A DNA stretch of 42,329 nt. Source: Candidatus Doudnabacteria bacterium RIFCSPHIGHO2_01_FULL_46_24 (GTDB lineage Bacteria; Patescibacteriota; Doudnabacteria; UBA920; O2-02-FULL-48-8). The notes beneath the pieces were generated by a model. That model saw only the letters and a program-made list of their open reading frames with translations. It had not been told where the DNA came from and did not search any database. The DNA lies in assembly GCA_001777575.1 (NCBI GenBank), contig MFEL01000007.1, positions 1 through 42,329 of the forward strand. Direction: 5' to 3'. Position 1 is the stretch's first letter. The number at the start of each line of letters is the position of its first letter. This document shows, piece after piece, positions 1,211-42,329 of the stretch. Both the position numbers and the translations under genes were made by a program.

Positions 1211-1690
1211 CTAGAGTCCGAATGGCGGGATGAGTGCCTTGAGGCGAGCCAGAGCTTTGGGCACGGCTTTGAAGATCAGCTTTTCTCTGCCGTCCCAGTA
1301 GTAGTCTGGTTCTTCGCTGACCAACTGGGCTCCGCAGGCTTTGGCAACGCCAATCATGGCTCCCCGATTGGTCGTCCCAAACGCCTCCTGGAATCCCATC
1401 TGCAGGAATCTGTCGCCAAGTGCCACGAGGAGCCGCATGCTCACAGTTCCATACCGGTAGCGTGATTCAGGAAGCACGCTCATGCCGGTCATCCACGCTT
1501 CGCGAATGTTGGTGATGCCAATCACTACGCCGACAACGAGATCGCGCTGCTCAGCGATGAGGATCGAGTCTCTCTGAAACCGACAAAGCCTCGACAGGCT
1601 ATACCGGTTATGGCCCTCGGGGAACCCACGACGGTAGCAATCCACCAGCCCTTCAAAGTCCCTCGTTCTGAAGTTTCGGATCATTATCAT
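1211..1690 (-). CDS. GNAT-family N-acetyltransferase
   Basis: IRNFRTRDFEGL start, VVGVVIG, and AWMTGMSVLPESR (motif A region); strong SD AAGGAGG upstream. Confidence 0.75.
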   Translation of the reverse strand: MIMIRNFRTRDFEGLVDCYRRGFPEGHNRYSLSRLCRFQRDSILIAEQRDLVVGVVIGITNIREAWMTGMSVLPESRYRYGTVSMRLLVALGDRFLQMGFQEAFGTTNRGAMIGVAKACGAQLVSEEPDYYWDGREKLIFKAVPKALARLKALIPPFGL

Positions 1691-1723
1691 CCCGCTTCCT
1701 CCTTAATTCGGTATTATATATGG

Positions 1724-1756
1724 AATTTTAATCCGCCGGAAGGTGGTTTTTTTGTA
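1724..1756 (+). repeat. Degenerate direct copy of the 16S terminator region (1148-1180)
   Basis: AATTTTAATCCGCCGGAAGGTGGTTTTTTTGTA versus AATTTGAAACCGCCGGAAGGCGGTTTTTTGGTA. Confidence 0.7.
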
Positions 1757-4784: not shown

Positions 4785-4926
4785 AGGGCAGGATTTGCAA
4801 TTTAAGTCCTGTCCTTGCTCGTTGGGGCGATTTTTGTTAAAGTATTGAAGCAAAAATAGAGATTTAGCGTTTTGGTGCGGGGTCACCTGACCCAGAAGTA
4901 GAATTTTTATAATCTGCCTTGCTGAT

Positions 4927-4993
4927 GGGCGCGTAGCTCAGGCGGTTATCCCAGTAGTAGATGCTTCACATCACTACGGGACAGGGAGCGCTA
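4927..4993 (+). pseudogene. 5' half of a tRNA gene interrupted by a palindromic element
   Basis: Removing 4949-4985 restores GGGCGCGTAGCTCAGGCGGTTA|GAGCGCTA exactly. Confidence 0.75.
4949..4985 (-). repeat. CCTG-tailed REP-like palindrome
   Basis: TCCCAGTAGT...ACTACGGGA-CAGG hairpin with no target duplication. Confidence 0.7.
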
Positions 4994-5033
4994 CCCCGCA
5001 CCTGCTATAATTTATCAATTATTCCTTGCTGTT

Positions 5034-5110
5034 GGGCGACTAGCTCAGGTGGTTAGAGCGCGTCACTGATAATGACGAGGTCGATGGTTCGAGTCCATCG
5101 TCGCCCACCA
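5034..5110 (+). tRNA. tRNA-Ile(GAU)
   Basis: Complete cloverleaf, anticodon loop CTGATAA, encoded CCA; extended -10 TGCTATAAT at 5003-5011. Confidence 0.97.
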
Positions 5111-5130
5111 GCAGGGCATAATTATAGGGC

Positions 5131-5222
5131 AGCGCGCCTGCCCCGTACCAAACGCGTAGCGTTTTGGTGCGGGGTCACTGATAATGACGAGGTCGATGGT
5201 TCGAGTCCATCGTCGCCCACCA
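5131..5222 (+). pseudogene. Duplicated 3' part of tRNA-Ile interrupted by a palindromic element
   Basis: 5131-5136 plus 5175-5222 are identical to 5057-5110; the insert 5137-5174 is CCTG-CCCCGTACCAAA...TTTGGTGCGGGG. Confidence 0.85.
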
Positions 5223-5240
5223 AAATCGCAAAGCGATTTT

Positions 5241-5763: not shown

Positions 5764-6088
5764 GGGCCATTAGCATAGTGGTAGTGCACCCGGCCGCGCC
5801 CCGTAGTCAACCGTAGGTTGTACTATCGGGGTTTGCACCCCGTACTAAATTTTTGATATTTGTTTTGTTGGGCCGTTAGCTCATTTGGTAGAGCGCCACA
5901 TTTGCAATGTGGAGGTGACCGGTTCGAGCCCGGTACGGTCCACCAGGATAAGAATCAAAAATTAGTACGGGGCAAGTCCGGCGGGTGCGAGTTCGATTCT
6001 CGCACGGTCCACCAGGATAAGTGATTTTCAAAAAATTAGTACGGGGCAAGTCCGGTGGGTGCGAGTTCGATTCTCCCATGCTCCACCA
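5764..6088 (+). pseudogene. Disrupted outer tRNA-Ala(UGC): 5' half 5764-5793, loop remnant 5832-5837, two 3' halves 5977-6014 and 6051-6088
   Basis: Removing the palindromic inserts gives a cloverleaf with G3.U70, loop TTTGCAT, T-loop TTCGATT and ACCA. Confidence 0.7.
5870..5945 (+). tRNA. tRNA-Ala(UGC)
   Basis: Complete cloverleaf, G3.U70 pair, anticodon loop TTTGCAA, encoded CCA. Confidence 0.97.
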
Positions 6089-6145
6089 GAATTCAGCATA
6101 GATTTGAGAATCGCCGGCAAGGCGATTTTTTGATATGATTAGATC

Positions 6146-37536: not shown

Positions 37537-39132
37537 ATGTCAAAAACAATTAGTATAAAATTGAAAAAGATCCAATACGTAGGCGACTCGATTGGTCAAG
37601 ATATCCATATTGAAATAAATATCTTAGGCCAAGTTTTTAGCATGGAGCAAACCATTAAACAGGGTTCAACAGTAGAACTAGATCGAATAATTGCGAAATT
37701 TCCTGCGGGAAATCAGGGCTTCAACGCAAAGATCAATATTAAAATCGTTGAAAAAGATTTTCTATTCAATGATGTCGGGAGCACCAGCGGAATGATCCAA
37801 GAGGGCCTGCTCAATCTCGAGGTTAAAGTCAGAGAATGGAAAAAGTTTTTCAGAAGATCAACGGCAATTTTTACGATTACATTTGAAGTTAAAGCTGTTG
37901 AATCAATGATCCTAAAACAGTATAGAGCCCCTAAGGCGAATCAGGATTATAACCGTTTTGACGACGAGATTATTATGGCTGTCAATCAATGGAACGGTCG
38001 TTTTGCGGCACAGCTCAATCCCCCACCTACTCTACTGGATCCAAATTTGGTTAAAGCCATTATTTATGTTGAAAGTGATATGGGCTATTATAAGTGCAAA
38101 GGATATTATCCAGGATACCCTGATGTCATGCAAGTTGCGGATCCTAGAAATTATGCAATATATGCTTTAAAAAATATTTTTAATCCTAAGCTAAACCGCA
38201 CTGCTACGGAGTACGAAGTCCTAAACGGTAAAACGGTGCCTCTTGAGTATCTTGAAGCTAATGCCGAAAAACCAGAAACAAGTATTTATTGGGGCGTTCG
38301 TTGGTTATATCATTTAGCGCAGTAAAACATCGAGCAGAATGGGATTTGGGTTCGCAACTGGAAAGATTGGAAAGATGCCGTTAAGAAATATAACGGAGGT
38401 GGTGACAAGGATTACCTGGAGAAGGTATACAATGCTTATGAACGAGGAGCGGGTGATAAAGGATCTAAACTATGGCAGATAATTGCGTTAATGGTGATTG
38501 GCGCTAGTCTTATTTACAGCATACCTGCTCATGATTTTTCTTTTGCTAAGACAAGTGGCAGGGTTACTGGAGAGATCAATCCGGGAAATAAAAATGCCGA
38601 AATTTTTGATGGATATTATCCGTTAAAACTGGCTTGGGAAAACTTTTCACCCACTGAATGCAATGCGTCTGACGATTTAGGGGATATTGATGAAATATTG
38701 AAGAACTGCACTTATACAGTTGGTACCAACTGGACCAGTATGTGGACTGTTAAGCTTAGTGAGGGATATTATGGTTTTACTCCGGAAGGATTTCATAATA
38801 ATAATGATTACGATGATGTTGGTCCCTGGCAGGTATCTTTTGAAAGAAGCGTTGAGGGTGATTTGGACAAGAACGGAAAAGATGACGCTGTGGTGATACT
38901 TCGCCTTAACTACGGCGGAAGCGGTAGTTGGTTAAATATGATTATTCTTATTCAGCTGGGCGATGGCTACTATGAGCAAACAGCAAACTATATGTTTGAA
39001 GACCGAGAAGTTATTAGAGGCTTGAGCGTTGATAACGGCATAATTACAGTTCGAATAATTGTAAAGGACGATAACGACTCATACTGTTGTCCTTCAGTTT
39101 ATGATACTTATCGGTTCAGAATTACAGACTAA
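37537..39132 (+). pseudogene. SLT/lysozyme-like domain plus TM plus C-terminal domain, split by one in-frame TAA (38323-38325)
   Basis: The frame continues past the stop (WKDAVKKYNGGG...YLEKV) directly into ORF 38491-39132; LVKAIIYVES, VMQV, SIYWGVRWL. Confidence 0.8.
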
Positions 39133-39283
39133 AATTTTCTTCCCAAAACCGAGAAGCTCGGAGTTGTGTGCAAGATTACGGGCCAGATAGAGATAATCAT
39201 CTGAAATTTTAGCATGCAGCCGAACCAATCCTTGTGCGGATGGCTTCTTTATTTTACACTTAAGCTTCTCCTAAGGAGGGTAG

Positions 39284-39865
39284 ATGGCCAGAAAAAAGAA
39301 GCGCACGGGCTTTGCCTTGATGTCCAGGGCTAAATTGCTGCGGGTAACCGCTCGGGGCGGCAGGCGGACTCAGAGAAAGTATAACTACAAGACCGGCTTT
39401 GCTGTGATGTCTAAAGCTATACTCAGGCGAGCCACGATCAAGGGCGGCAGGGCGACGCAAGCGAGGACCAACGGCCAGACAGGCTTCATGTTGTTGTCCA
39501 AGAAGCGGAAGCGGGAAGTCGCCCGCAAAGCCGGCAGAATCGCCTGGCAGAAAGGTCGGCTTCACAAATTCAGCGATGTGGAAAGGCGAGGCGGAAACCT
39601 CATGCGTGGGCAGTTTTTTCAGAAACTGGGACAGCCCTTGCCCGGAATCCCGACGAGATTGGTAGAACTTTGGGAAGCGGCGGAGCTGCTTGGACTGCAT
39701 GAAAATACGGTTGAGAAGCGGATCAAACAACGGCTGCTGCGGATGGAAAAGCCGCCAGGGTCCTTTCGACGCAAGGTTGCGGTTGAATCAATCAAAAAGC
39801 TTCGGACCAAAGCGCGCAAGCAATACGCTAAGTATTTGCGCCGCGCCCGAAAGAACATGGTGTAA
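39284..39865 (+). CDS. Highly basic protein with KGG/GsiB-like repeats and an excisionase-like HTH
   Basis: Three TGF..(M/L)S...R.....K/RG(G) repeats; EAAELLGLHENTVEKRIK; SD AAGGAGG. Confidence 0.75.
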   Translation: MARKKKRTGFALMSRAKLLRVTARGGRRTQRKYNYKTGFAVMSKAILRRATIKGGRATQARTNGQTGFMLLSKKRKREVARKAGRIAWQKGRLHKFSDVERRGGNLMRGQFFQKLGQPLPGIPTRLVELWEAAELLGLHENTVEKRIKQRLLRMEKPPGSFRRKVAVESIKKLRTKARKQYAKYLRRARKNMV

Positions 39866-39961
39866 AAGGCGGCCACAAGCCAGACTTGCGGCTTTTTTTG
39901 TTTTACTTTATTATGCCTGTAATTTGGCCAGCTGAGTTTGAACGATAAGGAGGAGTTGCAC

Positions 39962-40624
39962 ATGTCCGCAGCTTTGGAGCAAATCCGAATTGAGGCCGAG
40001 CGCCACCAGAAATTCGGTCCAGCATGGGCCTTGATGCGTGAGTTGAGAGTGATTCTCGATGGACACTTCTGGACCCACGACATGGGGCACACCGGCTACT
40101 ATTACACGACGCTTCCATTGTTTTTAACAGGCTCAATCTGGACGATCGTTCAGGAGCTGGCGGCAGCGATTGATGCGTCGGTTAAGCGGGAGATCACGGT
40201 CGTGGCAGGAGCGCAGTTCGGTGGCAACATCATCGCGCAAGGGCTCGTCAACCTGATTTCTGCCGCTGGGCCAGCCAGAACTATCCACTGCATCCATATC
40301 GAAAAGGAATTCGGGTTGGTCGGCAAAGATCTCGGGAAGACGAACTACGCCATTCGGGACTACTTTCGAGATTTTTTGTCAGGAACCAGAGTCTTGCTGG
40401 TTGATGACGTCAGGCGCAGCGGCAGAAACATGAAGCTGTTCGAAGCTCTGCTGAAGGACGCTAACGCCAGTGTCGTCGCAACAGCCAGCATCATTGACGC
40501 TTCCTTCGTCGAGCATCCCGGCAGGCACTTCAGCGTTTGGAAGGCTCCAGAGGGCGATCGCTATACTCCTGGCCCGCAAACATGCCCGATGTGCGCCAGC
40601 GGCACTCCGATCACCAAGTTCTAG
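39962..40624 (+). CDS. Type I phosphoribosyltransferase, PyrE-like, divergent
   Basis: GHF, VVAGAQFGG, RVLLVDDVRRSG, C-terminal CPMC; SD AAGGAGG before ATG 39962. Confidence 0.75.
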   Translation: MSAALEQIRIEAERHQKFGPAWALMRELRVILDGHFWTHDMGHTGYYYTTLPLFLTGSIWTIVQELAAAIDASVKREITVVAGAQFGGNIIAQGLVNLISAAGPARTIHCIHIEKEFGLVGKDLGKTNYAIRDYFRDFLSGTRVLLVDDVRRSGRNMKLFEALLKDANASVVATASIIDASFVEHPGRHFSVWKAPEGDRYTPGPQTCPMCASGTPITKF

Positions 40625-40670
40625 CGTCCGGAAACGCGGTTTCTGGACTTCTTTTTTTCCGACCTACCTC

Positions 40671-40699
40671 TTGACAGAGGATTTTTAAAAGGCTATAAT
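40671..40699 (+). promoter_or_regulatory. Consensus sigma70 promoter upstream of 23S rRNA
   Basis: TTGACA (40671-40676)-N17-TATAAT (40694-40699). Confidence 0.88.
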
Positions 40700-40711
40700 T
40701 GGCCTAATAGA

Positions 40712-40786
40712 ATGTTTAATAAGTTAATAGGCTTAACTTATATGGCTTACAGAATAAACTCTTTTATACGAAAGGCGGTTTCATAG
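40712..40786 (+). CDS. Candidate leader peptide (uORF) in the 23S leader
   Basis: MFNKLIGLTYMAYRINSFIRKAVS* (second in-frame ATG at 40742); the stop lies in the 5' arm of a long hairpin. Confidence 0.4.
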   Translation: MFNKLIGLTYMAYRINSFIRKAVS

Positions 40787-40820
40787 ACTAGCTGCATTTT
40801 TTGCGGTTAAGTTTAGGAGC

Positions 40821-40839
40821 CCGCCGAAAGGCGGTTTTT
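40821..40839 (+). terminator. Terminator-like hairpin inside the 23S leader
   Basis: CCGCC-GAAA-GGCGG-TTTTT, almost identical to the 16S terminator. Confidence 0.6.
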
Positions 40840-40918
40840 GATTGCTTCCAGAGTTTATTGCTCCACCGAATAATCTGATATAGGCGGTTCTTAAAGCGAG
40901 CAGTGTATTGTGGAAGTA

Positions 40919-40964
40919 ACCCCGACGGCCAGTCGGGGTAAACGGCTAGCAGCTTAACAATTTA
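40919..40964 (+). promoter_or_regulatory. boxB-like hairpin and boxA-like element
   Basis: ACCCCGAC-GGCCA-GTCGGGGT then GCAGCTTAACAATTTA (compare E. coli rrn GCTCTTTAACAATTTA). Confidence 0.5.
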
Positions 40965-41151
40965 GTTCAAAGTCATCTTTATAGTCCAGTGCTTCGCACT
41001 GTAAATTTTCAATGATCAAGTATCAATGATCAATTAATTTTCAAGAATCAATTTTCAATTGAAAATTGCGCGTAGCGCTGGAGAAACCAAGTCCTCGTCA
41101 TGTAAAACGGGGCAATAAGCAGTTAGTAACCACTAATTGCTAGTCAAAAAG

Positions 41152-42329
<1,178 letters not shown>

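Follow-up and report, generated by a model that had tools for sequence, protein, structure and literature searches.

The DNA stretch analysed here (hereafter the window) comprises 42,329 nucleotides (nt) of contig MFEL01000007.1 of Candidatus Doudnabacteria bacterium RIFCSPHIGHO2_01_FULL_46_24, whose 847 kb genome is distributed over 18 contigs and has a marker completeness score of 100 %. The window opens on the end of the 16S ribosomal RNA (rRNA) gene, continues with approximately 39 kb of protein and tRNA genes and closes on the 5′ part of the 23S rRNA gene, which stands apart from the 16S gene. Between the 23S gene and the promoter that feeds it lies a leader containing a short upstream open reading frame (uORF), a long hairpin and a terminator-like hairpin, and an earlier sequence-only reading had proposed that these parts form a translation-coupled attenuator. 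The uORF and switch element before the 23S gene is real and conserved, and it probably serves as a transcription attenuator, operated by ribosomes, in the 5′ leader of a 23S gene that has a promoter of its own.

Promoter, upstream open reading frame and competing hairpins

The promoter of the 23S unit (TTGACA-17-TATAAT, 40671–40699, on the plus strand, as are all leader features below) has its −35 hexamer at 40671–40676 and its −10 hexamer at 40694–40699, with an inferred transcription start at about 40706. Its 12/12 match to the consensus bears out the earlier description of a perfect promoter, and it is the sole perfect site within 39000–42329.

The conserved uORF (40742–40786) begins with the ATG at 40742, comprises 14 codons (MAYRINSFIRKAVS) and ends with the TAG at 40784–40786. 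The sequence-only reading had placed its start at 40712; the frame is indeed open from that ATG to the same TAG (24 codons), but this start is not conserved, and it is the in-frame ATG at 40742 that is kept by relatives. An extra upstream in-frame ATG, which extends the uORF to 23–28 codons, was seen in 3 of 18 sequences from the family (40712 in the window and loci L017 and L022). The uORF had also been described as lacking a Shine–Dalgarno (SD) sequence, which holds in that the signal is weak, but an SD-like AGG (40729–40731) is present 10 nt 5′ of the conserved ATG and forms a duplex of −2.4 kcal/mol with the 16S tail.

The alternative structures are built from three short segments. S1 (GGCGG, 40774–40778) lies within the last uORF codons and is a 5′ copy of the 3′ arm of the terminator, S2 (CCGCC) occupies 40821–40825 and S3 (GGCGG) occupies 40830–40834. 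Pairing of S2 with S3 around a GAAA loop produces the terminator-like hairpin, which has five G–C pairs and is followed by five U residues (40821–40839), while pairing of S1 with S2 forms the base of the antiterminator hairpin (40774–40825), which encloses a middle and an apical helix. Both GGCGG segments are complementary to S2, which confirms the proposed competition of two such segments for a single CCGCC. Other parts of the original description were also recovered: the last uORF codons and the TAG lie in the 5′ arm of the long hairpin, the stem of the terminator is short (5 base pairs, bp), and a 13-mer occurs in exact copies at 40769 and 40825 (0.08 expected), with a one-mismatch copy at 1161. 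The core of the terminator-like hairpin was said to be nearly identical to that of the 16S terminator (1157–1176, downstream of the 16S gene), and it differs from the corresponding segment at 1157–1170 in only 1 of 14 bases.

The RNA spanning 40706–40845 has a minimum free energy (MFE) of −38.7 kcal/mol, which is lower than that of all 200 shuffled sequences (z −2.98). In this MFE structure 40777–40821 is paired and a 4-bp mini-hairpin is kept at 40822–40833, the long hairpin taking only C40821 from S2. The terminator-like hairpin alone contributes −9.7 kcal/mol. When both conformers were folded, as had been proposed as a check, the S1:S2 register (40774–40778 with 40821–40825) gave −27.0 kcal/mol and the full terminator −27.9 kcal/mol, with −28.8 kcal/mol as the MFE of the stretch.

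Conservation and covariation among relatives

Parts of the leader, 40770–40839 among them, proved to be conserved 5′ of the 23S genes of related genomes when these were searched at the DNA level. The same order of elements was found in 18 of 18 family sequences, namely a consensus promoter, an A-rich stretch, the ATG, the S1:S2-based hairpin, a tetraloop, S3 as GGCG or GGCGG, five to seven U residues, a conserved hairpin and a boxA-like site. A covariance model made from the family gave one match each in 18 of 25 family genomes; the seven genomes without a match also lack a match to the first 239 nt of the 23S gene, so that the element was recovered in 18 of the 18 genomes where its presence could be tested. 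Apparent leader matches in genomes G018 and G010 were rejected, as they represent the complement of the 23S 3′ trailer beside the 5S gene. At the level of the order, for which the genome set is the same 146 genomes as for the class, model R1 matched in 60 genomes and the broader model R2 in 104, with about one match per genome.

Outside the order, weak matches were obtained in 7 of 144 sampled genomes, and six of the seven lie directly 5′ of a 23S gene on the same strand. In the phylum sample, 23S 5′ ends were located by similarity in 149 of 201 genomes, of which 127 were usable outside the order; 800 nt of upstream sequence was taken for 120 of these loci, and 119 of the resulting regions were long enough. 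With filters switched off, the model matched on the correct strand in 27/60 and 4/59 upstream regions, and on the wrong strand in one region of each set. A model-free scan, which demanded a GC hairpin followed by a T-run, a copy, further upstream, of the 3′ arm of that hairpin, and an ATG-initiated ORF ending −12 to +30 nt from that copy, detected the pattern in 42 of 119 upstream regions, compared with 2 of 119 reverse complements and 0–3 of 119 shuffled sequences. The first 60 loci, whose 23S starts are closest to that of the window, contributed 31 of these patterns and the other 59 loci contributed 11; since some of the misses are variants that fall outside the thresholds, the phylum figures are lower bounds. 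The 3′ end of a 16S gene was present within 800 nt upstream of the 23S gene in none of 60 distant loci, and tRNA genes occurred there in five. The comparison that the sequence-only reading had proposed as a check thus came out positive: a uORF stop within the antiterminator, two identical segments in competition for one partner and a U-tract ahead of boxA recur upstream of separate 23S genes in the family, in the order and in a part of the phylum.

The promoter is conserved together with the switch. A site with at least 10/12 matches and a TTGACA-type −35 hexamer was found upstream of the ATG in 58 of 61 order matches, usually with the end of the −10 hexamer 29–54 nt ahead of the uORF ATG. The distance from the terminator to the 23S gene amounts to 169–580 nt in the 43 matches where the 23S gene was located, and the possibility that 23S transcription starts downstream of the terminator was examined by searching this interval for a second promoter. 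The best site reached 8–9/12 in 54 of the 61 matches and 10/12 in five, and a second promoter was rejected because none is conserved. Moreover, the gap between the U-tract and the conserved leader segment that follows it measures only about 8 nt in the window. Taken together, the lack of a conserved second promoter and this narrow gap imply that RNA polymerase must cross the hairpin and U-tract to make 23S rRNA. In many relatives (loci L009, L012, L014, L018, L020 and L025) a CACATTTTGTCCCC-like motif is found just 5′ of the 23S −35 hexamer; the window does not contain it.

Independent single-sequence folds gave the same antiterminator architecture in 18 of 18 family sequences. Over 61 aligned matches, 78.1 % of the antiterminator positions were paired, against 34–46 % (maximum 46.4 %) for slid partners, and the covariation score was 0.312 compared with 0.144 for shuffled alignments, none of 500 shuffles scoring as high; 118 doubly changed cells were counted. 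The covariation that had been put forward as a check is thus present in the antiterminator, and a 30-sequence alignment agreed with this result. The core S1:S2 pairs are invariant, while the outer pair covaries (GC 27, GU 5, AU 3, CG 3 and UG 1). S1 and S3 change jointly among lineages (GGCGG, GCGG, CGCGG and others), with S2 complementary to both. The terminator helix, with stems of 4–8 bp, was 91.3 % paired over the 61 matches, and the U-tract columns are invariant in the 18 family sequences. In all 18 family sequences the two states are separated by 0–4.7 kcal/mol, and this near-equality fits a poised switch, whereas a plain terminator needs no such balance. An alignment of 18 leaders with MAFFT, evaluated with RNAalifold, returned the terminator only, as the hairpin arms were misaligned, and was replaced by per-sequence folds and covariance-model alignments.

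The start codon of the uORF is also conserved. At the aligned start position, the order matches have ATG in 56 of 61 cases, a shifted ATG in two (one of which, L121, is a probable false second match) and TTG in three, and the distant matches have ATG in 24 of 27, TTG in one and ATA in two. The ATG lies 27–36 nt before S1 (31–33 nt in the 18 family sequences), the peptide has 7–19 amino acids (14 in 37 of 61 order matches) and the stop codon starts −14 to +21 nt relative to S1. Between the start and S1, the 61 order matches contain 5 stop codons in frame 0, compared with 120 in frame +1 and 30 in frame +2. The spacing from ATG to S1 shifts by single bases, so that S1 is read in all three frames among relatives, and the uORF nevertheless stays open; compensating frame shifts between relatives were seen by eye. 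Since the covariance model includes the ATG columns, the start-codon test was repeated without it. In 60 unbiased loci, a terminator with an S1 copy was found in 43, compared with 10 of 60 on the reverse strand, and an ATG-initiated ORF of the right place and length was present in 30 of those 43 loci, ATG ranking first of 61 trinucleotides (TAT 22, AAA 16). The mean SD duplex over 55 homologues was −3.0 kcal/mol, compared with −2.1 kcal/mol for shuffled sequences. Codon-position periodicity was rejected as proof of coding because the signal is too weak to decide. Overall, the evidence that the uORF is translated is good but indirect.

The 16S leaders of the family are built differently. In the same genome, the 16S leader (contig C2, locus L038, approximately 1400–1740, minus strand) has a consensus promoter and a structured leader, which includes an SD-like AAAGGAG without a start codon that is able to pair with a UUUCUUU tract, as well as a conserved hairpin. 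It also has a strong terminator-like hairpin with five to six U residues before a boxA-like site, and no uORF. A leader of this type was seen in 10 of 12 family loci examined. The possibility that the uORF-attenuator geometry is conserved also upstream of 16S genes was not borne out, the 16S leaders having a terminator-like hairpin but no uORF, and a homologous element before 16S was rejected: R1 and R2 match about once per genome, before the 23S gene.

Mode of action and alternative explanations

The effect of a ribosome on the leader was modelled by equilibrium folding with a footprint masking positions −15 to +12 around the uORF stop. For the order set, the full terminator had a median probability of 0.12 in the free RNA, 0.88 with the footprint at the stop and 0.17 with the footprint at the start, and the stop footprint raised it by at least 0.3 in 43 of 60 sequences while lowering it by that amount in none. 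Since 35–50 nt separate the end of the uORF from S2, masking by a ribosome would be confined to S1 and the 5′ arm of the long hairpin. According to this model, a ribosome that translates as far as the stop should promote termination, and read-through should prevail on an idle leader, which is the direction of control put forward in the sequence-only reading.

In the proposed mechanism, RNA polymerase would start at about 40706 and transcribe a uORF that ends within the 5′ arm of the long hairpin. If S1 is free of ribosomes, the long hairpin would form first and hold S2, the terminator would be left incomplete and polymerase would continue through the boxA-like site into the 23S gene. A ribosome that translates to the uORF stop would cover S1 and the 5′ arm, allowing S2 to pair with S3 and ending transcription at about 40839. 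With the ATG 27–36 nt before S1, an initiating ribosome would stay short of S1, and only an elongating 70S ribosome, which needs the 50S subunit, would get there. The 23S output would be expected to fall when translation capacity is ample and to rise when it is short.

Several observations weigh against this interpretation. The proposal that a ribosome at the uORF stop blocks the antiterminator is consistent with the conserved geometry and with the modelled change in the order set, but the window itself shifts from just 0.19 to 0.46, and in the distant set the median for the free RNA is already 0.58 and rises to 0.82 with the stop footprint. Similarly, the claimed mutual exclusion of the two hairpins is supported by the pairing of both S1 and S3 with S2, by the near-equal energies and by the covariation of the antiterminator, but the overlap in the window is smaller than had been assumed and exclusion is partial, as at equilibrium a terminator shortened to 4 bp can exist alongside the long hairpin. 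The terminator stem has just 5 bp in 43 of 60 order sequences, and its core is invariant, which makes covariation silent on the terminator. The SD is weak, with only 20 of 55 homologues reaching −4 kcal/mol and the window not among them. Frame +2 is often open too (33/61 order, 14/18 family and 23/27 distant matches), so the openness of the uORF taken alone is weak evidence, and periodicity is faint, codon positions 1, 2 and 3 having entropies of 1.43, 1.46 and 1.57, respectively. A regulatory codon run was sought in the uORF and none was found, conservation being limited to hydrophobicity at position 8 and to basic residues towards the end of the peptide. Alignments made with the covariance model are biased towards the model structure and the ATG columns, and the genomes are related, so that counts are not independent. 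Finally, since the 16S leaders of the family carry a strong terminator-like hairpin ahead of boxA but lack a uORF, hairpins with U-tracts may have a wider, general role in these rRNA leaders.

Some of these points would also fit a genuine S1/S2/S3 switch that is operated not by a ribosome but by a protein bound to the A-rich tract and S1 (e.g. a ribosomal protein or an elongation factor), or by folding kinetics set by the speed of polymerase, with the conserved ATG serving another purpose. Such a device would be compatible with an SD that is weak or absent in many homologues, with a second open frame and weak periodicity, and with the finding that S1 and its A-rich flank are kept at the nucleotide level irrespective of reading frame; protein-operated attenuators do exist, the Bacillus subtilis L10 leader being an example. 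However, it offers no reason for an invariant ATG 27–36 nt before S1 that is kept while the intervening sequence is not, it leaves unexplained both the 5 stops in frame 0 against 120 and 30 in the other frames and the compensating frame shifts seen by eye, and no candidate protein site was found beyond S1. We regard this explanation as unlikely.

A poorer fit is obtained if the segment from about 40706 to 40839 is a separate small gene for an RNA of approximately 135 nt or a 14-amino-acid peptide, the 23S gene being transcribed by leak-through or from an unrecognized promoter further down. A perfect promoter and a terminator-like hairpin do bracket such a unit, some relatives have room and TATA-like motifs past the terminator (including one 11/12 site), and in Sinorhizobium both leader peptides and the attenuator RNAs formed by termination are reported to work in trans. 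Nevertheless, the absence of a conserved second promoter (8–9/12 at best in 54 of 61 matches) and the gap of about 8 nt behind the U-tract in the window argue against it, no Rfam family matches, the element occurs once per genome and always before the 23S gene, and the S1 copy and near-equal energies are needed by a switch rather than by a plain terminator, which together render this possibility very improbable. Equally hard to sustain is the idea that the hairpins are a constitutive part of pre-rRNA biogenesis, such as a site before boxA where polymerase pauses or passes a 'turnstile', or an element of folding or processing, without conditional switching, for although the 16S leaders also carry a hairpin and U-tract before a boxA-like site with no uORF or obvious competitor, the 455-nt 23S leader is highly structured (z −9.07) and Kingston and Chamberlin reportedly observed pausing and attenuation in the Escherichia coli rrnB leader in 1981, this reading would leave unexplained the copy of the terminator arm in S1, the similar energies of the two states, the conservation of the ATG and of the end of the ORF, and the large modelled effect of masking S1.

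A loss of the stringent response was also considered as the reason for the ribosome-operated attenuator. RelA/SpoT was not found in the genome analysed here, which is complete by markers. Of the 201 genomes sampled from the phylum, however, 150 encode it, among them all 9 that come from other families of the order (the tally includes the unpublished genome G293). A role of the attenuator as substitute for a lost stringent response was rejected, because RelA/SpoT occurs in most genomes of the phylum, including relatives that have the element.

Downstream leader and neighbouring features

The leader downstream of the terminator contains further conserved segments. The first (40841–40919) shares 68–85 % identity with relatives (query positions 242–320) and is paired in the fold of the 455-nt leader. 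It is followed by a GC-rich boxB-like hairpin (40920–40938), which was assigned by eye and is not found at this place in most relatives, and by a putative boxA-like sequence at 40949–40963, judged against the boxA consensus; a similar TTAACAA-type motif is present in relatives. These signals come only after the terminator, as the sequence-only reading had noted. A segment beside the 23S 5′ end (41083–41151) is also conserved in relatives. Part of it (41122–41147) matches the opposite strand of contig C9 of the same genome (3433–3458), and in two relatives the match adjoins the 23S 3′ end and the 5S gene; the segment is probably the leader strand of a leader–trailer processing helix. Between these conserved segments lies one copy of a dispersed AT-rich repeat of about 65 nt (41003–41068), which occurs at 15 further places in the genome on both strands and is not part of the switch. 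This repeat of the 23S leader is also copied in relatives.

The 5′ part of the 23S gene (41152–42329, plus strand) matches Rfam RF02541 with 608.5 bits over model positions 1–856 and extends past the end of the window. Its 1178 nt align to just 856 model positions, reflecting several insertions, e.g. at approximately 41385–41440, 41875–41965 and 42075–42170. The 16S gene is interrupted near its 3′ end (150–975) by an intron with a LAGLIDADG endonuclease ORF (257–844; PF03161, 101.6 bits), and the 16S 3′ end picks up again at approximately 925–975, past the intron. Upstream of the 23S promoter lies a phosphoribosyltransferase-domain gene (39938–40624, plus strand; Pfam PF00156 at 25.4 bits, slightly below the cut-off of 26.3), and its terminator (40626–40648, in the segment 40626–40658, plus strand), a 10-bp hairpin with a T-run, ends that unit ahead of the rRNA promoter. 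The tRNA-Ile (5034–5110) and tRNA-Ala (5870–5945) genes are accompanied by partial repeats of tRNA halves and short flanks at 4860–5225 and 5945–6095, which could be remnants of integration sites.

The genome encodes NusB; a Rho RNA-binding domain was not found in it. Public RNA runs shared words with the window at a fraction of at most 0.10, and contigs from four runs reached only the conserved 23S sequence from 41140 onwards and, in one of them, the dispersed repeat. None of these contigs lies on 40560–40994, which makes them uninformative on the leader either way.

Relation to known systems and significance for rRNA synthesis

The 23S element would work like a leader-peptide attenuator but control an rRNA gene, and would be a variant of a known device. 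Leader-peptide attenuators control the trp, his, leu, thr, ilv and pheA amino acid operons of enterobacteria. With these the 23S leader shares a promoter-proximal short ORF, mutually exclusive antiterminator and terminator hairpins, a U-tract and, if the proposal is right, a ribosome at the stop that masks the 5′ strand of the antiterminator. In contrast, it has no run of cognate codons, which is a feature of a subclass rather than of the mechanism, and no partner corresponding to region 1, so that the untranslated state is predicted by folding to read through rather than to terminate. The SD is weak, and the regulated gene specifies rRNA instead of an mRNA. In the coupling attenuators of pyrBI and pyrE, the ribosome physically prevents formation of the terminator hairpin. 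There, as would be the case here, control depends on how closely the first ribosome trails the polymerase and not on a specific amino acid; however, the 23S uORF ends approximately 35–50 nt before S2 and a ribosome on it would mask only the antiterminator.

No uORF is, to our knowledge, known from rrn antitermination leaders. The boxB–boxA–boxC leaders that recruit Nus factors (PMC10250234, PMC6614797) resemble the 23S leader in their promoter-proximal position, the putative boxA-like sequence, the presence of NusB and the likely leader–trailer helix, but the 23S leader differs from them in that its hairpin, U-tract and uORF lie upstream of boxA, before a Nus-modified polymerase forms. Reports on Sinorhizobium trpL (10.1101/606483, PMC6614838) describe a leader peptide of 14 amino acids, i.e. 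of the same length class, whose efficient translation leads to termination and release of a small leader RNA; unlike the 23S uORF, trpL senses tryptophan codons and precedes a biosynthetic gene. The antibiotic-sensing leaders of bmrCD, mef/msr and yxjB use, as is proposed here, the position of a ribosome on a short ORF to choose between hairpins, but there a stalled ribosome induces a resistance gene, whereas no motif for stalling could be identified in the 23S leader, and the gene that follows it is 23S itself.

Full-text literature searches yielded no report in which a uORF or an attenuator is described for an rRNA leader; subscription papers and the supplements of surveys (PMC2965389, PMC5314783) lay outside their coverage, and such supplements might list candidates of this kind. 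The accessible portions of a survey of unlinked rRNA genes (10.1101/705046) and of a survey of premature terminators (PMC2965389) do not mention one. When 40550–41200 was compared with Rfam 15 at E values up to 10, the start of 23S and a single chance match (E 2.3) were the only results.

The synthesis of rRNA is the pacemaker of ribosome production, and it is controlled at the promoter by guanosine tetraphosphate (ppGpp) and the initiating nucleoside triphosphates as well as by Nus-dependent antitermination. If the ribosome-operated attenuator is confirmed, a different principle would apply, in which the pathway's own product, a working ribosome, would read the leader as it is made and switch off the rRNA gene. 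A more specific and rather doubtful extension is that the uORF and switch act in cis to measure the supply of ribosomes that are free and able to elongate, and in particular that of 50S subunits. A 30S complex waiting on the ATG might remain 27–36 nt short of S1, and only subunit joining and elongation might bring a ribosome onto S1 and stop 23S transcription. Lineages with separate 16S and 23S genes might in this way obtain direct feedback of ribosomes on rRNA synthesis, of the kind set out in Nomura's model, with a switch of different design in the 16S leader as a possible 30S counterpart. How stoichiometry is held between unlinked rRNA genes without a common promoter was raised as a concern in the survey of such genes (10.1101/705046), and the attenuator, if it acts as proposed, would address this question for unlinked 16S and 23S genes. 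The element is compact (approximately 135 nt), the effects of mutations in it can be clearly predicted, and it is widespread in a phylum that is large and for the most part uncultured.

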